From contig JAGWOI010000009.1 of NCBI GenBank assembly GCA_028870995.1, forward strand, positions 7,085-71,084: 64,000 bases of DNA, in the 5' to 3' direction. Positions 4,290 through 62,342 of the stretch are shown here, piece after piece. How positions within the stretch are numbered: position 1 is the stretch's first letter; the number at the start of each line of letters is the position of its first letter. A program made the position numbers and the translations under genes. The DNA comes from Candidatus Omnitrophota bacterium. GTDB lineage: Bacteria > Omnitrophota > Gorgyraeia > Zapsychrales > Fredricksoniimonadaceae. The notes under the pieces were generated by a model. That model searched no databases, had not been told where the DNA came from, and worked only from the letters and a program-made list of their open reading frames with translations.

Positions 4290-4838
4290 GTGGCTGCACG
4301 CTTGTTAGAAAAATACCGTAAGGAAGTCATTCCTCAGATGCAGGAAAAATTCAAGATCGCCAATCCCATGGCTGTCCCGCAGTTGTCCAAGATCGTGGTG
4401 AACATGGGGGTGGGTGAGGCCATCGGCGATGCCAAGCTTCTGGACCGCGCCGCCGAGTACTTGGCCCAGATCACCGGACAAAAACCGATCATTTGCCGTT
4501 CTAAAAAGGCGATCTCGAATTTCAAGCTGCGCGAGAACCTGCCCATCGGCTGCAAGGTGACCTTGCGCCGGGCGCGGATGTACGAATTTCTTGACCGCCT
4601 GGTGAACGTGTCCATCCCGCGTATCCGTGACTTTAACGGCACGTCCCGCAAGGGTTTTGACCGTGACGGCAATTACACCATGGGCATCATCGACCAGGGC
4701 ATCTTTCCGGAAATTGATCCGTCGGTCCGCGATTACCGCGTCCAGGGGATGGATATTTCTTTCGTTTTCGAAGGCGGCAACAAGGAACAAAATTTTGAGG
4801 TCTTGCGTCTTTTAGGCATGCCTTTCAGCAAACAATAA
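4290..4838 (+). CDS. rplE: 50S ribosomal protein L5 (GTG start)
   Basis: 182 aa. ...LEKYRKEVIPQMQEKFKIANPMAVPQLSKIVVNMGVGEA... and GMDISFVF. Confidence 0.95.
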   Translation: MAARLLEKYRKEVIPQMQEKFKIANPMAVPQLSKIVVNMGVGEAIGDAKLLDRAAEYLAQITGQKPIICRSKKAISNFKLRENLPIGCKVTLRRARMYEFLDRLVNVSIPRIRDFNGTSRKGFDRDGNYTMGIIDQGIFPEIDPSVRDYRVQGMDISFVFEGGNKEQNFEVLRLLGMPFSKQ

Positions 4839-4840
4839 CA

Positions 4841-4921
4841 AGGCCGATTTTGCTACTAAAAGATTAAGGAAATCGGCACTTCGAATCAATGTAAAAGTAG
4901 TGGAACTTTTGGAAGGAATCT
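4841..4921. repeat. Copy 2 of the ~85-bp intergenic hairpin + ribosome-binding-site repeat; fills the rplE-rpsZ spacer
   Basis: AGGCCGATTTTGCTACTAAAAGATTAAGGAAATCGGCAC...GTGGAACTTTTGGAAGGAATCT then ATG. Confidence 0.85.
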
Positions 4922-10783: not shown

Positions 10784-11182
10784 ATGCCCAGAATTTTAGG
10801 TATAGATTTGCCTAAGGAAAAACGGATTGAAGCGGCCCTGCCGTACATCTACGGTATCGGTCCTGCCCGCAGCCGCCAGATTCTGGAACAGGCCCAGGTC
10901 AGCGGCAACAAGCGCGCCAAGGATTTGACCGAAGAGGAGATTTTGAAGATCACCAACCTGATCCAGAAGAACTACGTCACGGAAGGTGATTTGCGCCGCG
11001 AGATCAACGAGAATGTGCGCCGTCATATGGAGATCGGCACCTACCGCGGCCTGCGCCACCGCAAGGGGCTGCCGTGTAGGGGCCAAAGGACAAAGACCAA
11101 CGCCCGCACCCGCAAAGGCAAGAAGCCGGTGGTGGGTCATATTATTAAGAAGGAAGCAGCTCCTGCTGCCAAGAAAGCTTAA
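10784..11182 (+). CDS. rpsM: 30S ribosomal protein S13
   Basis: [35 protein letters not shown]. Confidence 0.96.
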
Positions 11183-11202
11183 CACAGAGCTCAAGGAAAA
11201 TT

Positions 11203-11637
11203 ATGGCCGATACCAAACCTCAAGCAGCAAAAGCAGATCAAGCACAGGCGGTCAAGAAGCCTGCTAAAGCCAAAAAGAAAAACCTTAAGGGTGTCACCTC
11301 AGGCATTGTCACCATCCAGGCGTCATTCAACAATACCATCGTGACCATCGCCGACAAGCAGGGCAATACGATCACCTGGGCATCGCCCGGTTTGGTGGGT
11401 TTTCATGGCTCCAAGAAGTCGACTCCCTTTGCCGCGCAGATCGCAGCGACCGATGCTGCCCGCCGCGCCAAGGAACTGGGGGTCATGAGCGTCGATGTGC
11501 TGGTCAAGGGTCCGGGTTCGGGCCGCGAATCCGCCATCCGCGCGCTGGTTGCCGCCGGTTTACATGTGACTTCGATCAAGGATGTAACGCCCATCCCGCA
11601 CAACGGATGCCGTTCACGCAAGAAACGCAGGGTTTAA
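11203..11637 (+). CDS. rpsK: 30S ribosomal protein S11
   Basis: ...[30 protein letters not shown]...[33 protein letters not shown]. Confidence 0.95.
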
Positions 11638-13426: not shown

Positions 13427-13993
13427 ATGAGACACGCGAAGGAAGGCAATCGTTTAAGCCGCAACAAAAGTTTAAGAAAAGCGACCTTGCGCGACATGGC
13501 CCGTGCCGTCCTGGTGCAGGAACGCATTTGCACCACCCGTGCCAAGGCCAAGGAAGCCAGGAAGCTTATCGAGAGATTGATCACCCTGGGCAAGAAGGAC
13601 ACGCTGGCGGCACGCCGCCGGGCTTTCGCCATCCTTTGCGACCATGGGTTGGTTTCCCAATTGTTCAAGCAGACCGCCCCGCGCTTCAAGGCGCGTAACG
13701 GCGGCTATACCCGCATTATCCCTTATATGCAGCGCAGCGGCGACAATGCCGCCCTGGCCTTCCTGGAACTTACCGAGAAATCCAGGGAGATCATCACCGG
13801 TACCAAGCGCGCCAAGGCCGAGAAGGAAGCGGCGGACACCAAGACCGTTTCCGAAGCGGAGACTAAACCCGCAGCGGAAACCAAGCCGGCAGCGCCGGGG
13901 CATTCCAAGGCTGATGTCAAGACCAAGCCTAAGGCTGCGGCCAAGCCCACCGGTGTCAAGAAGCTGTTCCAGCGCAAGACCGGAGGCGAATAA
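13427..13993 (+). CDS. rplQ: 50S ribosomal protein L17 with a ~65-aa Lys/Ala/Pro-rich C-terminal tail
   Basis: MRHAKEGNRLSRNKSLRKATLRDMARAV...GGYTRIIPYMQRSGDNAALAFLEL. The tail is a low-complexity K/A/P/E stretch. Confidence 0.93.
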   Translation: MRHAKEGNRLSRNKSLRKATLRDMARAVLVQERICTTRAKAKEARKLIERLITLGKKDTLAARRRAFAILCDHGLVSQLFKQTAPRFKARNGGYTRIIPYMQRSGDNAALAFLELTEKSREIITGTKRAKAEKEAADTKTVSEAETKPAAETKPAAPGHSKADVKTKPKAAAKPTGVKKLFQRKTGGE

Positions 13994-14023
13994 GCCGCCG
14001 CTTGCGTTAACAAGCAATTCCAG

Positions 14024-14052
14024 CCCCGTCTGAACAAGACGGGGCTTTTTTA
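14024..14052 (+). terminator. Rho-independent terminator after rplQ
   Basis: Hairpin CCCCGTCTGAACAAGACGGGG followed by TTTTTTATT. Confidence 0.8.
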
Positions 14053-14066
14053 TTGCCCTTTTCTCG

Positions 14067-14123
14067 TTGGACCGTTTCCGCGTCAGCCCTTGCTGCTATT
14101 GAGGTTATGATAGAAGTGTCCCC
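14067..14123. repeat. 57-bp bipartite motif TTGGACCGTTTC-N24-GGTTATGATAGAAGTGTCCCC; a second copy lies at 38974-39030
   Basis: Both flanking blocks match block-for-block at the two loci (39 of 41 positions identical) and the 24-nt spacing is the same. Both copies sit just 3' of a conserved gene at the edge of AT-rich DNA. Confidence 0.7.
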
Positions 14124-14129
14124 TTGCCT

Positions 14130-14294
14130 GGTTAAGCCGGTATTGCTCCCGAAACGGGGATATTTTCGCCGTCCGCTACGCTTTACGGCTCGGTTTCTAT
14201 CGCGATAAGGCATACGCGGAAACCTCGCCGTAAAACCTTGCGGACATTTGGCGAAAAATCCCTGAATGTTTCGTTCCGCAATACCGGCTTAACC
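14130..14294. repeat. Giant imperfect palindrome, family 1, copy 1 (165 bp)
   Basis: Terminal arms are GGTTAAGCCGGTATTGC / GCAATACCGGCTTAACC. The core GAAACGGGGATATTTTCGCCGTCCGCTACG...CGCGGAAACCTCGCCGTAAAACCTTGCGGACATTTGGCGAAAAATCCCTGAATGTTTC is shared with the copies at 25634-25810 and 26635-26802. Confidence 0.9.
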
Positions 14295-14313
14295 GTAGAG
14301 GATACCATTTCTG

Positions 14314-14343
14314 TTAGCATATGCAAATCATTCTGGTATAATT
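14314..14343 (+). promoter_or_regulatory. Near-consensus sigma70 promoter with extended -10: TTAGCA, 17-nt spacer ending TGG, then TATAAT
   Basis: -35 TTAGCA (14314-14319), 17-nt spacer, TGn extension, -10 TATAAT (14338-14343). This lies 15 nt upstream of the island's first ORF. Confidence 0.7.
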
Positions 14344-14357
14344 AGAAATTCCTAAAT

Positions 14358-14768
14358 ATGACACTAAAGCAGAAAAAATTTCTTGGTCGAGAGAGCCTTA
14401 GAGAATCTTGGGTTAAAAGCACAGATACTCCTTTACGTTTTTTTGTTCAGCTATTATTTATAATTGAAGGAACTCTGGGGCTGGTATTTATTGCAGGAGT
14501 TAAATATAATTTGGACAAAACTATTTTAATTTGGATCTTTTTGTCCTTAGTTGGACTTGGCGGACTTGCTTTAATAATGGTTTTTCTACTTGTTGTTTTT
14601 TTTCCAAAGAATTTAGTGTTTGATAAAGATGCTCATTTATTTGAAAGAGCTTTAGAATACGGAGATGACGCGCATATAATGGCGTATTCCCAGTTAAGAA
14701 GTGTGGAATTAATATCTCCTCCAAAACAAATTACAAATCAACGTCAGGAAGGAACTATAAATGAGTAA
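14358..14768 (+). CDS. Hypothetical small membrane protein (2 predicted TM helices); AT-rich
   Basis: 136 aa. Hydrophobic segments FFVQLLFIIEGTLGLVFIAGV and ILIWIFLSLVGLGGLALIMVFLLVVFF. First gene behind the island promoter. I recognise no family. Confidence 0.6.
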   Translation: MTLKQKKFLGRESLRESWVKSTDTPLRFFVQLLFIIEGTLGLVFIAGVKYNLDKTILIWIFLSLVGLGGLALIMVFLLVVFFPKNLVFDKDAHLFERALEYGDDAHIMAYSQLRSVELISPPKQITNQRQEGTINE

Positions 14769-15036
14769 GGCTTTCCTGATAACATATGACTTAAAATATA
14801 AGTCCACACAGAATTATGTGCCTTTTTTTAATGCTATAAGGACTGCTAAATGGTGGCATTATCTTCCAGATGCATGGATTATTATAACTGATAAAGATGC
14901 TACTTATTGGCAAAACACACTGGTTCCACTAACGTTTCAAGGAGATTTTCTACTAATCATTGAAGTAAAACGACAATCTGGCGGGTGGCTTCCTTTAGAA
15001 GCCTGGAATTGGATAAATGAAAATATTCCAACATAA
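14761..15036 (+). CDS. Hypothetical 91-aa protein, translationally coupled to the upstream membrane protein (ATGA overlap)
   Basis: MSKAFLITYDLKYKSTQNYVPFFNAIRTAKWWHYLPDAWIIITDKDATYWQNTLVPLTFQGDFLLIIEVKRQSGGWLPLEAWNWINENIPT. Trp-rich, with no recognisable family. Its start overlaps the stop of 14358-14768. Confidence 0.55.
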   Translation: MSKAFLITYDLKYKSTQNYVPFFNAIRTAKWWHYLPDAWIIITDKDATYWQNTLVPLTFQGDFLLIIEVKRQSGGWLPLEAWNWINENIPT

Positions 15037-15221
15037 TTGAATATATTTAGTTTTAGAACGAGCCGGGTCCCTGAAAGGGGATAGGTCTGTTTGAATTGAC
15101 AGCCGATCCCCGTCGTGATATTCTACATGCAGAACAAGAAGCATTCCGACCGTAACCATCCCCGCCGCTTCTTATTATCAAACCCCCTTTAATTCGTAGC
15201 AACGACGAAGGATTTACTTTC

Positions 15222-15632
15222 ATGAAGAATAAATCAAGAAAGTCAGGGGAGGATTTTAACCATTGGAACCAGCAGAAGCAAAAGACGCATTTCGACAAGC
15301 AAAGGCCTTTTTTCCATGAACAGGAAGTATGGTTTTGTGCGCTGGGAGTTAATATTGGTTTTGAACAAGATGGCCGGGGCAATGGATTCTTACGACCGGT
15401 TCTGATCCTAAAGAAATTTAATAACGAAATATTCTGGGCTTTGCCCATGACTAAAAATTTAAAGCAAGGGACGTATTACGCTGCCATTTCATTTAGAAAA
15501 AATACCCAAAGCACCTTAATTCTTTCTCAAATTCGCTTAGTTGATGCAAAAAGACTGGTATATAAAGCAGGAGCTGTTAAACAGCAGGATTTTGAATCGA
15601 TTAAAGAGAGGGTTAGGCAAATACTTGCCTAA
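15222..15632 (+). CDS. PemK/MazF-family endoribonuclease toxin-like protein (divergent, with an N-terminal extension); no cognate antitoxin ORF detected
   Basis: ...QEVWFCALGVNIGFEQDGRGNGFLRPVLILKKFNNEIFWALPMT...LILSQIRLVDAKRLVYKAGAVKQQDFESIKERV. This parallels the MazF pattern of a G-rich loop, RPxLIL, then ADQVKSID-KRL...G.L....I. Confidence 0.6.
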   Translation: MKNKSRKSGEDFNHWNQQKQKTHFDKQRPFFHEQEVWFCALGVNIGFEQDGRGNGFLRPVLILKKFNNEIFWALPMTKNLKQGTYYAAISFRKNTQSTLILSQIRLVDAKRLVYKAGAVKQQDFESIKERVRQILA

Positions 15633-15708
15633 AAAAATTAACCCCCGTTCTTGACGGGGGAGGGCCTTTCAGCCATTTGTGGTTTAAGTATAACATGGCA
15701 TATGATTA

Positions 15709-15953
15709 TGTCAAACGTTAAAAAGAGGTGTCACATGGGAAAAACAAAAAGTTTTCTGTTTGACGCAAAAGAAACGAAATATTTGTGGAGATATTCGGAT
15801 GATGCTATGCGTACAACAAGAAGGTTAAGTGAAATGTATCCAGATATCCCTAAGAAGCTCGATGCTGTAGTACATGTTATCGAATTTCACAAGTTAACAA
15901 GTATACCAAGGAGTAAAAGAACAAAAATATTGAATTGGTTAGATAAGGAATAA
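15709..15953 (+). CDS. Hypothetical protein (start ambiguous; the ORF track gives 15651-15953)
   Basis: MSNVKKRCHMGKTKSFLFDAKETKYLWRYSDDAMRTTRRLSEMYPDIPKKLDAVVHVIEFHKLTSIPRSKRTKILNWLDKE. The track start at 15651 overlaps the upstream hairpin, so an internal ATG (15709 or 15736) is more likely. Confidence 0.45.
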
Positions 15954-15965
15954 AAGGGAGGGGAG

Positions 15966-16397
15966 ATGCCCAAAAAGCCCGTCAAAAAATGCTGCATGTG
16001 CGGCAAGCCGGTCTTCTCGCCCAAATCCATCTATTGCCGTGACTGTTCTCATTTCAGCGCCCGGATGTCCGATGAAAGGTTTTCACCGGAAACCCGCCAA
16101 CAGCTTTGGAATTACGTCCGCCGTAACAAAGGCTTTTACTGTTATTACACCGGTTTAAAACTCGATGTGTTTGATTACGCGAGTCCTTATTTCCTGGAGT
16201 TTGACCATGTCACACCGCAAAACCCCAAGAAGATCGTGATGTGCTGCGCCTGGTTCAATGAAATTAAAGGGGACATGACCTTAAACGAATTAAAGGGTTC
16301 TGTTAAGCAGCTCTTTAACTACTGGTTTAAGGGTATAAAAATAAAAAAGCGAAAATTCCGCTATTGGTACCGCCTTATCCCTGATTTTTGTAAATAA
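15966..16397 (+). CDS. Small free-standing HNH endonuclease with an N-terminal zinc ribbon
   Basis: N-terminus CCMCGKPVFSPKSIYCRDCSHF (a 4-Cys motif). The HNH core is EFDHVTPQNPKKIVMCCAWFNEIKGDMTLNEL (His...Asn...Asn/Lys). Confidence 0.7.
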   Translation: MPKKPVKKCCMCGKPVFSPKSIYCRDCSHFSARMSDERFSPETRQQLWNYVRRNKGFYCYYTGLKLDVFDYASPYFLEFDHVTPQNPKKIVMCCAWFNEIKGDMTLNELKGSVKQLFNYWFKGIKIKKRKFRYWYRLIPDFCK

Positions 16398-16430
16398 TTT
16401 TGCTCCTCTTCGTAGTGCCCTCGGGAAGGG

Positions 16431-16459
16431 TTGACTTGCCCCTATAATTTCTATATAAT
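16431..16459 (+). promoter_or_regulatory. Consensus sigma70 promoter TTGACT-17-TATAAT upstream of lysS
   Basis: -35 TTGACT at 16431-16436, exact 17-nt spacer, -10 TATAAT at 16454-16459, 47 nt before the lysS start. Confidence 0.7.
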
Positions 16460-16506
16460 GCCCTGTCCAGATATTCTTATATTAATTTTATATAATATGG
16501 TGGTCT

Positions 16507-17955
<1,449 letters not shown>

Positions 17956-25633: not shown

Positions 25634-25810
25634 GCGTATAGGTTAACCGGTATTGCTTCAGAAACGGGGATATTTTTGCCGTCCGCTACGGTTTACAGCT
25701 CGGCTGCTATCGCGATAAGGCATTCGCGGCAGCCTCGCTGTAAAGCCTTGCGGACATTTGGCAAAAAATCTCTGATCGTTTCTGAAGCAATACCGGCTTA
25801 ACCTATACGC
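25634..25810. repeat. Giant imperfect palindrome, family 1, copy 2 (177 bp)
   Basis: Arms are GCGTATAGGTTAACCGGTATTGCTTCAGAAACG / CGTTTCTGAAGCAATACCGGCTTAACCTATACGC. The core is shared with copies 1 and 3, with compensatory changes between the arms. Confidence 0.9.
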
Positions 25811-25837: not shown

Positions 25838-26596
25838 ATGGTTTACGAACTTAATAGATTCGTGAGTAACGACAAGTATGTTGACAAAAAAGACATTATT
25901 GACGCAATACGTAAAACCGCAAAACAGAACGGCGATAGCCCTTTAGGCGTCGGTAGATTCGAAAAAGAGACAGGAATAAAAAGTTATGATTGGGGAAAAT
26001 ATTGGGCACGGTTTGGGGATGCACAAAAGGAGGCTGGTTTTAAGTCAAATCAGTTACAAATTGCCTATACTGACGAGTTTATTATTGAGAAGATAATTGG
26101 TGTGATTTGTAAGCTTGATAAATTTCCAACCCTACGCGAAATGGTGGTAGAACATCATAACGATTCTGAGTTTCCGAGTTATAGTGTTTTTAGACGCTTA
26201 GGTACGAGGGAACAAATTGTAAATAAAGTAATGGAATATTGTAAGGATAAGAGTGCTTACGATGATATTGTTACTCTTTGTGGATCAATTCTTGGGAGTT
26301 CCAAAGATGAAAAGGTTATGGATGAGTCTAACATTCAGATTGGAGAAGTATACCTTTTCAAGTCGTGTCGGTATTATAAAATTGGAAAAACATATGACAC
26401 CGTGAGGCGGGGCAGTGAACTTAGGATTCAATTACCAGAAAAATGCGAATTAATACATTCTATTAAGACTGATGATCCAAGTGGTATCGAAGCTTATTGG
26501 CATAAACGATTTGAGACGAAAAGGATGAATGGTGAGTGGTTTGACTTAAGCTTTGCTGAAGTAAAGGCATTTAAGCTTTGGAGACGTATAAATTAA
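25838..26596 (+). CDS. Free-standing homing-endonuclease-like protein: two N-terminal HNH/homing-endonuclease-associated repeats plus a C-terminal T5orf172/GIY-YIG-like nuclease domain
   Basis: C-terminus is GEVYLFKSCRYYKIGKTYDTVRRGSEL...LIHSIKTDDPSGIEAYWHKRFETKRMNGEWFDL (the GIY..YIG..R..E..N pattern of T5orf172). N-terminus has two repeats of ...P..FGxxxxA..EAGF type (SPLGVGRFEKETGIKSYDWGKYWARFGDAQKEAGF). AT-rich. Confidence 0.7.
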   Translation: MVYELNRFVSNDKYVDKKDIIDAIRKTAKQNGDSPLGVGRFEKETGIKSYDWGKYWARFGDAQKEAGFKSNQLQIAYTDEFIIEKIIGVICKLDKFPTLREMVVEHHNDSEFPSYSVFRRLGTREQIVNKVMEYCKDKSAYDDIVTLCGSILGSSKDEKVMDESNIQIGEVYLFKSCRYYKIGKTYDTVRRGSELRIQLPEKCELIHSIKTDDPSGIEAYWHKRFETKRMNGEWFDLSFAEVKAFKLWRRIN

Positions 26597-26634: not shown

Positions 26635-26802
26635 GGATGGATAGGTAGGATGTTTTCAGAACGGGGATATTTCCGCCGTCCGCTACGGTTTATGGCTCGG
26701 TTTCTATCGCAATAAAGCATACGCGGAAACCTCGCCATAAAACCTTGCGGACATTTGGCGGAAAATCCCTGAATATTCTGAAAACATCCTACCTATCCAT
26801 CC
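26635..26802. repeat. Giant imperfect palindrome, family 1, copy 3 (168 bp)
   Basis: Arms are GGATGGATAGGTAGGATGTTTTCAGAA / TTCTGAAAACATCCTACCTATCCATCC. The core is conserved while the outer arms differ from copies 1 and 2 yet remain perfectly self-complementary. Confidence 0.9.
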
Positions 26803-37913: not shown

Positions 37914-38954
37914 ATGGCTGTTGAAACTATTAAATGGATCAATGGTGCGGCCCGTATCATTGATCAAACCAAACTTCCCCGTCAATTTAAATACCTCTAT
38001 TGCCGCGACGTCAAAACCATGTGGCAGGCCATCAAGCGCCTGCAGGTGCGCGGCGCGCCAGCCATCGGTGTTGCTGCCGCCTTTGGCGTTTTGTTAGGCA
38101 TTCAGAAATTCAAGGGTTCGGATAAAAGGAAGTTCCTGCAATTGTTCCATGAAACCTGTGATTATTTGAGCACATCCCGCCCGACGGCGGTGAATCTTTT
38201 CAACATGCTCAATGAAATGCGTGCCGTCGTGACGCATAATCCTCAGGCCGATGTGGCCACCTTAAAAAAGGCCCTGTTCCTGCAGGCCATGACCATTTTT
38301 GAGGCGGACCGCGAGGTCTGCCGGCAAATGGGGGAGCACGGTGCCAAACTGATCAAGAACGGCATGCGCTGTTTGACGGTTTGCAATGCCGGGGCCCTGG
38401 CTACTGTTGATTACGGCACGGCTCTAGGCGTTTTTTACAGTGCCAAGGGGCGGGGCAAGAAATTCAGCGTCTATTCCTGCGAGACCCGTCCCTTATTGCA
38501 GGGGGCAAGGCTCACCTGTTGGGAACTGCTGCAGCAGAAGATCGATACCACGCTTATCTGCGACAATATGGCTGCGACCCTGATGGCGCAGGGGAAGGTG
38601 GACATTATTTTTACCGGTGCTGACCGCATCGCCTCCAACGGGGATGCCGCCAACAAGATCGGCACCTACATGCTGGCGGTCCTGGCCCGGCATCACGGCA
38701 TTCCTTTTTATGTGGTGGCGCCCAGCACTACCTTTGATTTGAAGATAAAGTCCGGCAGGCAGATCCCCATCGAAGAGCGGCACAGTGATGAAGTCACGCA
38801 TTTTGCGGGAGTGCCCACAGCTCCCAAGGGCGTTAAAGTCTATAATCCGGCCTTTGACGTGACGCCGGCTAAGCTCATTGCCGGCATCGTGACCGAACAC
38901 GGCATCATCCGAGCGCCTTTTGTCAAAAATATCAAACGTCTTCTCTTAAATTAG
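37914..38954 (+). CDS. mtnA: S-methyl-5-thioribose-1-phosphate isomerase (eIF-2B alpha/beta/delta family)
   Basis: 346 aa. RGAPAIGVAAAFGVLLG...CNAGALATVDYGTALGV...GADRIASNGDAANKIGTY. Confidence 0.85.
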   Translation: MAVETIKWINGAARIIDQTKLPRQFKYLYCRDVKTMWQAIKRLQVRGAPAIGVAAAFGVLLGIQKFKGSDKRKFLQLFHETCDYLSTSRPTAVNLFNMLNEMRAVVTHNPQADVATLKKALFLQAMTIFEADREVCRQMGEHGAKLIKNGMRCLTVCNAGALATVDYGTALGVFYSAKGRGKKFSVYSCETRPLLQGARLTCWELLQQKIDTTLICDNMAATLMAQGKVDIIFTGADRIASNGDAANKIGTYMLAVLARHHGIPFYVVAPSTTFDLKIKSGRQIPIEERHSDEVTHFAGVPTAPKGVKVYNPAFDVTPAKLIAGIVTEHGIIRAPFVKNIKRLLLN

Positions 38955-38985
38955 TTGGACCGTTTCAAATTAGTTGGACCGTTTC
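38948..38985. repeat. Perfect tandem duplication, 2 x 19 bp (AAATTAGTTGGACCGTTTC), which includes the mtnA stop codon
   Basis: 38948-38966 and 38967-38985 are identical. The second unit begins the 57-bp motif (38974-39030) that is shared with 14067-14123. Confidence 0.85.
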
Positions 38986-39285
38986 TACGGGAACCTATGA
39001 GACTCTTAGGGTTATGGCAGAAGTGTCCCCAAAACTTGAAGGGAATGGACCAAGTAGAGTCAATTCACCTTCTCCCAAGGGTTTCATATAATTTCCCAAT
39101 TCGATATCACAGTTTGTGATCTTAAGTCAGGGTGGTTCGCGCAAACCGCGACAAAAAGATTATCTCCATATTCCAGGCCATTAAGGCCTTATTGTCCAAC
39201 AAAGAAGTGAAATCGAGAAAACGGGCGCCTTTGGGATTTCAAATACCGAAGGGAATTAAGTAGCTGTTTTATTCTTCTCTTGTAG

Positions 39286-53456: not shown

Positions 53457-54335
53457 ATGCATCCCGTTTTTGCCATCATCGACATTCTTCTTCTTTTTAC
53501 CTTATGTTGGTTCTTCCTGCAAAATATCCGGCTCAACCGCGAACTTAAAGAGAAAAACAGGGAATTGGAAGCTGCCATCAAGGAGCTTAAGGATGCCCAG
53601 GTCAAATTGATGGACAGCGGCAAGAAAGGCGCCGTCGCCGCCCTTAGCGCCGGTCTTTTGCATCAGATCAGTCAGCCCATCACTGCCATTCATGGGTTTT
53701 TGCGCTTCATGAAAAAGGAAATGGACATCAATTCCCCTTTTTACAAGCCGGTCTGCGTCATGGATGAGCAGTCTTTTTATATCAAGGACATGCTGGCCAA
53801 TTTGATGGAGCTGATCCGCCACCGTAAGATCCAGAAAGCGCCGATCAACATCAATACGGTGATCCATCGCGCCATGAATTTGCTTTTGGACGAACTGCGT
53901 ATCCGCCGTGTCGGTTGGGACATGCAGTTGGAAGAGAAGATACCCATGGTTTACGGGGATGCCCTGCATTTGCAGCAGGTCTTCATGAACCTTGTGGTCA
54001 ATGCCATGGAAGCTTTGAGCGAATTGCCTCACGGGCAGGCGCGCGCCCTAATCGTCGCTTCCGCCTACGGGGCCGCCCGCCAGGAAGCGGTCATTACCTT
54101 CAAGGACAACGGCCCGGGCATCGACAGCCAGCACCAATCCAAGATTTTCGATCCATTCTTCTCAACCAAGACGCAGGGGTCGGGCATAGGATTGGCCCTG
54201 TGCCACGATCTGATCAACGAGCACGGCGGCCATATCAGCGTCCAGAGCGGCAAGGAGGGGACCATCTTTACGGTGACATTGCCATGCATGAGGTCCGGCA
54301 AAATCCAACAGGCCGATCTTGCTACTAATAATTAA
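53457..54335 (+). CDS. Sensor histidine kinase (one N-terminal TM helix, HisKA plus HATPase_c). The last 8 codons are contributed by the 85-bp repeat
   Basis: H-box AALSAGLLHQISQPITAIHGF, N-box LQQVFMNLVVNAMEA, G-boxes DNGPGI and GSGIGLAL. Confidence 0.85.
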   Translation: MHPVFAIIDILLLFTLCWFFLQNIRLNRELKEKNRELEAAIKELKDAQVKLMDSGKKGAVAALSAGLLHQISQPITAIHGFLRFMKKEMDINSPFYKPVCVMDEQSFYIKDMLANLMELIRHRKIQKAPININTVIHRAMNLLLDELRIRRVGWDMQLEEKIPMVYGDALHLQQVFMNLVVNAMEALSELPHGQARALIVASAYGAARQEAVITFKDNGPGIDSQHQSKIFDPFFSTKTQGSGIGLALCHDLINEHGGHISVQSGKEGTIFTVTLPCMRSGKIQQADLATNN

Positions 54336-54394
54336 GGAAATCGGCACCTTGAATCAGTGGAAAAGCTAGTGGAATTTATGGAGGGAGGCTGGAC
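54310..54394. repeat. Copy 3 of the ~85-bp intergenic hairpin + ribosome-binding-site repeat (overlaps the histidine-kinase 3' end and supplies the response-regulator ribosome-binding site)
   Basis: AGGCCGATCTTGCTACTAATAATTAAGGAAATCGGCACCTTGAATCAGTGGAAAAGCTAGTGGAATTTATGGAGGGAGG. Confidence 0.85.
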
Positions 54395-56221: not shown

Positions 56222-56441
56222 GAAACAGGATAAATTTATTGTTTCTTGCTCCTGCCCGATTTTTTAACGCCGACGATCCTCGCTCACTTGGTGACTAAAC
56301 AACTCGCCTTGAATTTCTCTGGAAATTCAAGGCTCAAACATGTTTGGTCAGCCCTCGGCTTTCGCCTCGGGCTTCCCTCGTTCGCTCGGCTGCGTCGGCT
56401 AAAATCGGAAGTCGCTTCGAAACAACAAATTTATCCTGTTT
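56222..56441. repeat. 220-bp compound palindromic element between the convergent GT39-like gene and lpdA
   Basis: Outer inverted repeat AAACAGGATAAATTTATTGTTTC / GAAACAACAAATTTATCCTGTTT. Inner pairing CCGATTTT..GCCGACG / CGTCGGC..AAAATCGG. Central perfect hairpin GCCTTGAATTTC-TCTG-GAAATTCAAGGC, plus the 12-bp palindrome CAAACATGTTTG. Confidence 0.7.
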
Positions 56442-62257: not shown

Positions 62258-62342
62258 TGGTGCCGGAGGAGAGATTTGAACTCTCAAGGGTTTCCCCATA
62301 CGCTTCTGAGACGTACGCGTATACCAATTCCGCCACCCCGGC
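62258..62342 (-). tRNA. tRNA-Leu (anticodon CAG), 85 nt with a long variable arm and encoded CCA
   Basis: The reverse complement reads GCCGGGGTGGCGGAATTGGTATACGCGTACGTCTCAGAAGCGTATGGGGAAACCCTTGAGAGTTCAAATCTCTCCTCCGGCACCA. It has a 7-bp acceptor stem, an anticodon loop CTCAGAA, a long variable arm and a T-loop GTTCAAATC. Confidence 0.85.

Follow-up and report, generated by a model that had tools for sequence, protein, structure and literature searches.

A mosaic family of long palindromic repeats in the intergenic spacers of Omnitrophota

Introduction

Repetitive extragenic palindromic (REP) elements are known to form mosaics, the bacterial interspersed mosaic elements (BIMEs). The enterobacterial repetitive intergenic consensus (ERIC) and YPAL elements are reportedly imperfect palindromes of 127 to 170 bp that lie in transcribed spacers in both orientations, take insertions at fixed internal points, and persist as copies at orthologous sites. 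REPINs consist of conserved inverted units around a hairpin-forming spacer, and compensatory changes are common in them (PMC3116915). The repeat described here lies in a 64,000-nt stretch of contig JAGWOI010000009.1 from a Candidatus Omnitrophota bacterium (the window), in which a first-pass annotation had pointed out three copies of a long palindrome with covarying arms, each bounding an AT-rich inserted cassette. We find that the three copies belong to a mosaic family whose arm symmetry appears to be made or kept at the DNA level; the element is a dispersed repeat, REP/ERIC/MITE-like in kind (MITE, miniature inverted-repeat transposable element), and not a new cassette-mobility system. Omnitrophota are uncultured, and we found no description of their repeat content.

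Results

A repeat search of the window returned a single family of three 136-nt copies (14137-14272, 25647-25782, and 26644-26779), with copies 2 and 3 being 88% and 84% identical to copy 1 over this core. The copies are bordered by perfect outer arms of 17 nt in copy 1 (14130-14146/14278-14294), 20 nt in copy 2 (25647-25666/25777-25796), and 27 nt in copy 3 (26635-26661/26776-26802, 27/27 complementary), and the repeat search and the arms together bear out the extents given by the first-pass annotation (Table 1). Copy 1 is a single long hairpin on both strands, with RNA folding energies of -91.1 kcal/mol (z = -10.2) on the + strand and -99.1 (z = -11.4) on the - strand and a DNA folding energy of -58.1 (z = -12.2); none of 200 shuffles was equally stable, and z scores of about -10 to -12 agree with the annotation, which had taken each copy to be one long hairpin. 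The compensated stem segments that it quoted (TTTTCGCC/GGCGAAAA, TTTTTGCC/GGCAAAAA, and TTTCCGCC/GGCGGAAA) are all present, and so are the inner-stem changes (GGTTTC/GAAACC versus GGCTGC/GCAGCC; ACGG/CCGT, ACAG/CTGT, and ATGG/CCAT). The palindrome TATCGCGATA, which had been described as a perfect one at the apex, proved to be off-centre, imperfect in copy 3, and not the hairpin apex; the predicted apical loop sits in ATAAGGCATA, and copy 3 has TATCGCAATA. The outermost 17 to 27 bp are self-complementary as had been stated, but their differences between copies mainly reflect subfamily-specific arms, only the last 3 to 7 bp being copy-specific (for instance, GCGTATA/TATACGC in copy 2). In copy 3, about one third of the arm positions (by eye) have changed relative to the consensus of the B-type arms described below, yet complementarity is complete.

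Scanning viral contigs with a single 17-mer gave chance matches only, and a two-block search pattern (GTCCGCTAC ... TTGCGGACATTTG[G]) was therefore adopted. This pattern found 6 loci in 185,579 species genomes, 5 of them in Omnitrophota/Omnitrophica metagenome-assembled genomes (MAGs) and 1 in a genome labelled Planctomycetales, and 59 loci in JGI metagenomes, one of which is probably a chance match; it had no match in viral contigs. Exact-pattern scanning yielded 69 matches with 54 distinct cores; one of the matches is probably due to chance. After removal of identical duplicates, 56 copies were aligned, and a covariance model built from these 56 distinct copies added diverged members in the loci and in a syntenic relative, for a total of 65 matches (63 distinct). 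Up to three copies occur per 14-kb locus, in mixed orientation (three in L044; two each in L018, L022, L046, L064, and L068), and the density in the sequences analysed is about one copy per 20 to 60 kb. In L068, two members stand head-to-head about 130 nt apart (1048-1184, +; 1311-1446, -), one of a diverged type with a GTGCGC core and one of the standard C type. Run over the 64-kb window with filters off, the model recovered only the three known copies, all on the + strand (14148-14278, 117.5 bits; 25658-25788, 121.4 bits; 26656-26785, 124.2 bits), and the reverse complements of these copies score just 25 to 30 bits versus 117 to 124 on the + strand, which gives the element a clear polarity. 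No match was found by blastn in plasmids and phages or, at word size 11, in 5,426 E. coli genomes. In Rfam 15, the sole match in the window at the gathering threshold was a tRNA gene (62261-62342, -), and nothing matched over 14050-14400 even at E ≤ 10; a description of the hairpin element was not found in the literature either. These empty searches are in line with the annotation, which had recognized no described element.

The unit is a long imperfect palindrome of 165 to 180 bp (more than 330 bp in one subfamily) with a conserved mid-stem, GCCGTCCGCTACGGTTTAC ... GTAAA-N-CCTTGCGGAC-ATTT-GGC. The 5' arm of the mid-stem reads TTTT-GCC-GTCCGC-TAC-GG-TTTAC and the 3' arm GTAAA-N-CC-TT-GCGGAC-ATTT-GGC-AAAA, with a second 3'-arm bulge (CTGAAT or CTAAT) farther out; the asymmetric bulges lie on the same arm in every copy, and their conservation there argues that some protein reads the core. 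The search pattern itself imposes part of the mid-stem invariance; among copies that only the model detected, this stem covaries too (GTCCGC/GCGGAC, GTCTGC/GCAGAC, and GTGCGC/GCGCAC). The position of the bulge is fixed and its length variable, ATTT being replaced by 14 to 23 nt at the same place in L083, L068, and L018. CCGT-CCGCT-ACGG is itself a mini-palindrome that reads GTAGCGGAC on the - strand; this tag lies inside the long stem and not at a free 5' end. Around the mid-stem, at least four outer-arm types are found, namely A, (TAT)ATGGTTAAACGGTATTG...; B, GATGAACAGCTATTATGTG...; C; and D, and copies with C-type arms lie within a palindrome that exceeds 330 nt. The apex types number at least six and occur with these arm types in most combinations; window copy 1 and L033, for example, have near-identical interiors inside entirely different arms (by eye). 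The family is a mosaic in which outer-arm and apex modules are interchangeable around the conserved mid-stem.

In the model-based alignment, 97.3% of cells are in standard pairs, compared with 85.4% in shuffles, and 19 of the 30 pairs have changed on both sides. The covariation score was 0.363 versus 0.140 in shuffles, a value reached by none of 500 shuffles, and it fell to 0.06 to 0.14 in slid controls whose partners were moved by 1 to 3 columns. The annotation had read the covariation as a sign that the folded structure is maintained, a reading that is statistically sound on these numbers, and it had named an alignment of many copies as the place to look for support, which the alignment indeed provides. 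Helices 2 to 4 contain about 200 of the 220 double-change cells but only about 6 wobble cells; helix 1, which has a compromise register, was left out of this count. On the + strand, the outer arms hold 1766 Watson-Crick pairs, 7 isolated G.T, and 26 isolated A.C mismatches, of which several are common by descent and few are independent events. The - strand is more stable than the + strand in 52 of the 56 copies and the G.T versus A.C counts lean likewise, which we do not treat as decisive. Structured RNAs usually pass through and tolerate G-U pairs; the near-absence of such intermediates, together with the presence of copies in both orientations, points to a symmetry made or kept at the DNA level and not in a strand-specific RNA. 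Its likely source is the exchange of whole palindromic modules or the copying of one arm from the other.

Gain and loss can be followed in syntenic contigs of close relatives, in which MlaE is 85 to 87% identical and the gene order is the same from lysS on. The mlaE-mlaF site, occupied in the window by copies 2 and 3 with a T5orf172 gene between them, is empty in L079 to L083, where the spacer measures 14 nt (L083) or 73 nt (L079 to L082); in L078, it holds an unrelated 154-aa open reading frame (ORF; 10852-11316, no Pfam match) without hairpins. These short spacers identify the 1.2-kb block of copy 2, gene, and copy 3 as an insertion in the window's lineage. A diverged copy and, behind it, an AT-rich 71-aa ORF (4609-4824, no Pfam match) fill the ABC_tran/Aminotran_4 site of L083, and the window and L079 have about 20 nt there. 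As the ORFs of L078 and L083 illustrate, the short spacers of this conserved gene array repeatedly acquire small accessory genes. A hairpin also follows rplQ in L012, L020, and L027, but this one is of the C subfamily. The flanks and outer arms at the murG site are collinear in L009, L050, and L059, but L009 differs from the other two in an inverted core with another type of apex. Given arms that are mutual inverted repeats, a donor could recombine with a resident copy either way round, which would explain both the mosaicism and the flips.

Many copies extend the palindrome by 3 to 7 bp that are specific to the copy (TTAGGAT/ATCCTAA, ATGAAT/ATTCAT, TGAAAC/GTTTCA, and GCGTATA/TATACGC), and the mean complementary run of these flank extensions is 3.9 with the own partner versus 1.3 with mismatched partners. 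The extensions are inverted duplications and hence not ordinary target-site duplications. Template-switch "quasipalindrome correction" is an established mutational mechanism; acting at the foot of a strong hairpin, it would yield exactly such extensions, and so would flank capture by a hairpin intermediate. The dinucleotide TA, itself a palindrome, borders many A-type ends. The motif AGCGTA on both sides of the copy 2-gene-copy 3 block was considered as a target-site duplication and rejected, since it recurs nearby and was judged a chance occurrence.

Copies of the family as a whole lie tightly between housekeeping genes, and the stop and start codons of the flanking genes are often less than 30 nt away. 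Of 42 copies with genes on both sides, 25 are in the sense of two co-directional genes (++), 13 are antisense to them (--), 3 lie between convergent genes, and 1 lies between divergent genes. GC skew taken in the element's orientation is positive for 35 copies and negative for 16, the same split of about 2:1 as for gene direction, and since copies on one contig differ in orientation, no strict replication-strand rule applies, as far as GC skew is a proxy. The neighbours, identified by Pfam or from translations that were read, are housekeeping genes (rplQ, murG/Peptidase_MA/murC, mreC, argS, nadC, uvrB, cysS, cysD, scpA-ruvB, lpd-mdh, and ispDF-cysE-cysS), no neighbour family other than orthologues recurs beside copies, and gene pairs bracketed by two copies elsewhere are likewise housekeeping and of normal GC content. 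Only 7 of 102 flanks (56 copies) lie more than 0.08 below the GC content of their locus, 3 of these 7 being the window's own, and neither a T5orf172 nor an HNH homologue occurs in the 65 pattern-found hairpin loci (L006 to L070; 59 metagenome and 6 genome loci). The few AT-rich flanks, the housekeeping neighbours, and the absence of both nuclease genes from these loci indicate that bordering a cassette is not a property of the family, contrary to the first-pass annotation, and that the cassette link of the window copies is local. The annotation had also allowed that the element would be ordinary if it proved to be a genome-wide REP-like repeat with no enrichment beside foreign genes; by that standard, the element is largely ordinary in kind.

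The surroundings of the window copies (Table 1) are as first annotated, with copy 1 after rplQ, a promoter-like site 20 nt farther on, and a low-GC island, and copies 2 and 3 around a T5orf172 gene between mlaE and mlaF (mlaE, copy 2, T5orf172/MUG113 gene, copy 3, mlaF). Since rplQ has its own terminator upstream of copy 1, the repeat is not the terminator of this operon; a terminator role for the hairpin was rejected on this ground and because most copies lack a following T-run (by eye). The low-GC island has a GC content of 0.32 to 0.44 and reaches lysS at 16507; its ORFs have no match in ncbifam or PADLOC. The window T5orf172 and MlaE proteins are 100% identical to MAG proteins listed at NCBI under "Candidatus Omnitrophica bacterium". 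A 58-nt repeat (GTTGGACCGTTTC...GGTTATG.YAGAAGTGTCCCC) occurs at 14066-14123, immediately upstream of hairpin copy 1, and at 38973-39030 (74% identity), where it follows a gene ending at 38954 and is preceded by a partial tandem, TTAGTTGGACCGTTTC.

Both AT-rich islands beside window copies encode nucleases, one of the GIY-YIG type (T5orf172) and one HNH/EndoVII-like. The T5orf172 family has 2,953 database matches, with 60 to 78% identity among the matches listed, which include CPR (candidate phyla radiation) bacteria and DPANN archaea. The HNH gene has a 66% identical homologue upstream of lysS in L079 to L081, where it is accompanied at the same place by a different toxin-antitoxin pair (Gp49/HTH); the different content of the rplQ-lysS gap in relatives marks it as a variable island in this lineage. 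No member of the hairpin family lies beside T5orf172 homologues elsewhere, but in 3 of 5 other distinct genomic contexts these homologues lie beside long palindromes of other families (two in L072, one in L085, and a REP doublet in L087); L075 and L089 have no palindrome. Palindromes may attract nuclease genes, or both may merely be tolerated in the same spacers, the sample being too small to tell.

One of these other families is also present in the window. The 219-nt palindrome between PMT_2 and lpd has the arms AAACAGGATAAATTTATTGTTTC / GAAACAACAAATTTATCCTGTTT and an apex stem with compensated differences, and it is 80% identical to L072:2707-2935, just upstream of a T5orf172 homologue in another organism; this second family makes long palindromes a general feature of this genome. 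Downstream of the same T5orf172 homologue, a 192-nt palindrome (L072:3757-3948; GCCCCCGTAGCATAA...TTATGCTACGGGGGC) consists, by eye, of a tRNA-like gene on the - strand and an inverted partial copy of its 5' half, and it may have been left by an integration event at a tRNA gene. An element of about 85 nt (AGGCCGATTTTGCTACTAAAA.ATTAAGGAAATCGGCAC.TTGAATCAGTGGAAAAG.TAGTGGAATTTTTGGAAGGA, containing a GGCCGATTT/AAATCGGC hairpin) has three window copies (1399-1458, 4859-4918, and 54327-54386) and ends in GGAAGGA, which resembles a ribosome-binding site, just ahead of gene starts; its role may be that of a shared leader or a promoter, or it may represent a further repeat family. Two more units, a small REP-like hairpin (GTCATTCC(C/T)GCGAAAG...GGGAATCC) and a related one (GTCATTGCGAGCGnAGCGAAGCAATC), come up repeatedly in the intergenic spacers of these genomes, sometimes as inverted doublets (L079:10790-10860, the flanks of L055, L083:4950-5000, and L087:3241-3320). 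These lineages carry several repeat families.

Table 1. Repeat copies, neighbouring genes, and associated features of the window
Feature	Positions	Strand	Remarks
rplQ	13427-13993		Upstream of copy 1
Intrinsic-terminator-like hairpin of rplQ	14022-14046	+	Upstream of copy 1
Palindromic repeat, copy 1	14130-14294	+	A-type arms GGTTAAGCCGGTATTGC, apex type 1; follows the rplQ gene and terminator
Low-GC island between copy 1 and lysS	14300-16500	+	Five ORFs
Promoter-like site TTAGCA-17-TATAAT with upstream TG	14314-14342	+	Consensus match only; 20 nt past copy 1
MazF/PemK-like toxin ORF	15222-15632		In low-GC island
HNH/EndoVII-like nuclease ORF	15966-16397		In low-GC island; CxxC...CxxC, EFDHVTP...CCAWFNEIKG; phrog "endonuclease VII" 3.5e-7
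Palindromic repeat, copy 2	25634-25810	+	A-type arms, apex type 1; between mlaE stop codon and T5orf172 gene
T5orf172/MUG113 + HNH_repeat gene, GIY-YIG-type, homing-endonuclease-like	25838-26596	+	Pfam; GC 0.37; not a family member
Palindromic repeat, copy 3	26635-26802	+	Diverged B-like arms, apex type 1; between T5orf172 gene and mlaF
Second, unrelated long-palindrome family member	56223-56441		219 nt; between convergent PMT_2 and lpd

Discussion

The repeat family, apparently undescribed so far, is probably one of non-autonomous, palindromic intergenic elements that are dispersed in Omnitrophota and are of the REP/BIME-REPIN, ERIC, or MITE/foldback kind. Among the roles first proposed for it, that of a MITE or foldback element fits best, whereas a cassette-mobility system does not hold as a property of the family. 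A dispersed repeat of this kind could have acquired its present form as follows. The palindromic arms would allow recombination or gene conversion between copies either way round, leading to mosaicism and orientation flips, and repair templated from arm to arm (quasipalindrome correction or conversion within the palindrome), along with selection for the hairpin or cruciform, would keep the arms Watson-Crick paired and let the palindrome creep a few bases into its flanks. By analogy with REP/REPIN elements and their REP-associated tyrosine transposases (RAYTs), a DNA-binding protein that acts in trans, such as a transposase or recombinase, may recognize the conserved bulged core. Elements transcribed inside operons would have to form long RNA hairpins, probably as a side effect, and the two nuclease-bearing AT-rich islands would be separate insertions into the same permissive spacers.

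Several observations weigh against the dispersed-repeat reading. Pfam detects no transposase, RAYT, Y1 enzyme, or integrase among the window ORFs at 14 to 18, 24.8 to 27.6, and 39 to 64 kb, the rest of the window being made up of ribosomal-protein operons and genes syntenic with annotated relatives. It is the middle of the element that is conserved, unlike the termini of classical MITEs, in part because of the search pattern. No direct target-site duplication is present at the copies, whose flank extensions are inverted and share only the self-complementary TA, and no insertion event with exact junctions was caught. In addition, different species retain copies at orthologous sites (downstream of rplQ in the window, L012, L020, and L027; downstream of murG in L009, L050, and L059), and the sense orientation is in modest 2:1 excess; this persistence and excess could reflect a host function instead of selfish spread.

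An alternative reading takes the repeat for a cis-acting structured RNA that is co-transcribed with its flanks and selected at the RNA level (an insulator within operons, a processing site for RNase III, or a stabilizer of mRNA). The very strong covariation, the conserved internal loops, the location of 38 of the 42 classifiable copies between co-directional genes (often filling the whole spacer), the sense orientation of about two thirds of them, and the occupation of the same sites after rplQ and after murG in different species would all suit an RNA. But one third of the copies are antisense and the murG site holds both orientations, although the bulge sequences would read differently when flipped; G-U pairs are nearly absent, isolated mismatches on the + strand amounting to 7 G.U against 26 A.C; and the elements form a multi-copy mosaic family that is present or absent among close relatives, has no Rfam match even at E ≤ 10, and does not act as a terminator, given the separate one upstream at rplQ and the lack of a T-run at most copies (by eye). 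We therefore consider an RNA function unlikely. A second alternative, in which the folded single strand is an attC-like recombination site for the insertion of AT-rich cassettes, draws on the low-GC genes that adjoin all three window copies, on the L083 site, empty in relatives, where an AT-rich 71-aa ORF comes after the copy, on extrahelical bulges that always lie on one arm as in attC, and on the 3' position of 7 of 8 low-GC flanks. It is highly improbable in view of the normal GC content of 95 of 102 flanks, the housekeeping genes that lie between pairs of copies elsewhere, the two orientations, the absence of arrays, and the lack of an integrase among the Pfam-scanned window ORFs. Furthermore, the R''/R' consensus is absent (the A-type ends have it in reverse order, and the other subfamilies lack the motif), the conserved part is the middle of the stem and not its base as in attC, and other small ORFs occupy these junctions in relatives that have no hairpin there (L078).

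The palindromes may instead serve as landing pads, being cut by the encoded GIY-YIG or HNH nucleases or by host SbcCD, with break repair capturing homing-endonuclease-like genes. Nucleases are encoded in both islands next to window copies (T5orf172 and HNH/EndoVII-like), and T5orf172 homologues stand beside palindromes of other families in 3 of 5 contexts, one of them of the family at 56223-56441, but the same genes have no homologue in the 65 pattern-found loci, two of the five contexts (L075 and L089) have no palindrome, the sample is small and comes without a background rate of palindromes per spacer, and the two features could just share permissive spacers; we give this account little chance of being right. 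A more far-reaching reading has the bulged mid-stem as the substrate of an undescribed DNA enzyme that reads the hairpin, as a folded strand or cruciform, moves or exchanges the interior either way, and copies flank onto flank, with palindromes as preferred entry points for T5orf172/HNH selfish genes. This is speculative and rather improbable; if true, it would explain how the flanks came to be extended as inverted repeats, how modules were swapped, and how the interior was inverted in situ, and the conserved asymmetric core would be a defined substrate with which such a dedicated enzyme could be found.

The family illustrates cleanly that "compensatory" covariation, even when very strong, does not have to signify a functional RNA, which calls for caution in structured-RNA screens. 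It is usable as a marker for binning and strain typing, and it can explain breaks in assemblies. As long natural hairpins within essential operons (ribosomal, dcw, and mla), its copies must also affect transcripts and replication.

Among described elements, REPIN and REP-BIME elements share with the Omnitrophota repeat two conserved inverted units around a variable spacer whose hairpin is kept by compensatory changes (PMC3116915), the half-sites here flanking at least six apex types with covarying stems, as well as an extragenic, multi-copy distribution in either orientation and higher-order mosaics. However, the Omnitrophota unit is two to four times longer, its conserved halves lie mid-stem beneath subfamily arms of 30 to 45 bp, it has no clear REP with a 5' GTAG/CGTC tag, and it does not resemble E. 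coli repeats in sequence; RAYTs (Y1 HUH enzymes) were found neither among the Pfam-scanned window ORFs nor in the roughly 5 to 10 kb around copies. ERIC and YPAL resemble it in size class, in forming a single long imperfect palindrome, and in their spacer habit, but they belong to a different phylum and show no sequence similarity, and the Omnitrophota arms and apices are far more interchangeable around a conserved, bulged asymmetric core. With MITEs such as Correia/NEMIS, it has in common a small, non-coding, dispersed intergenic unit with inverted-repeat arms (17 to 27 bp perfect), multiple copies (65), empty and filled orthologous sites, RNA hairpins when transcribed, and the capacity to bracket genes. 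The termini of MITEs are conserved, and MITEs also come with a direct target-site duplication and a cognate insertion sequence (IS), whereas the extreme termini here are copy-specific and the extensions inverted; a full-length IS sharing these ends was found neither in the window nor as a recurrent neighbour.

The likeness to attC consists in a structure conserved above sequence, extrahelical bases on one arm, and a variable apex; the Omnitrophota repeat differs in having no R/L boxes, arrays, or integrase, in its mixed orientation, and in lying mostly away from cassettes. An attC reading of GGTTAA...TTAACC was rejected, since the A-type ends, GTTAAGC...GCTTAAC, are the reverse of R''(RYYYAAC)...R'(GTTRRRY) and types B, C, and D lack the motif. 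A palindrome-associated transposable element (PATE) derived from IS200/IS605 was likewise rejected, because the whole element is one palindrome with inverted termini and has no constant flanking tetranucleotide. The repeat thus departs from each named family in at least one tested feature, as it lacks a direct duplication, a REP tag at a free end, similarity in sequence, and attC boxes. The best-supported placement is closest to REPINs in logic and to ERIC/YPAL and MITEs in size and habit.

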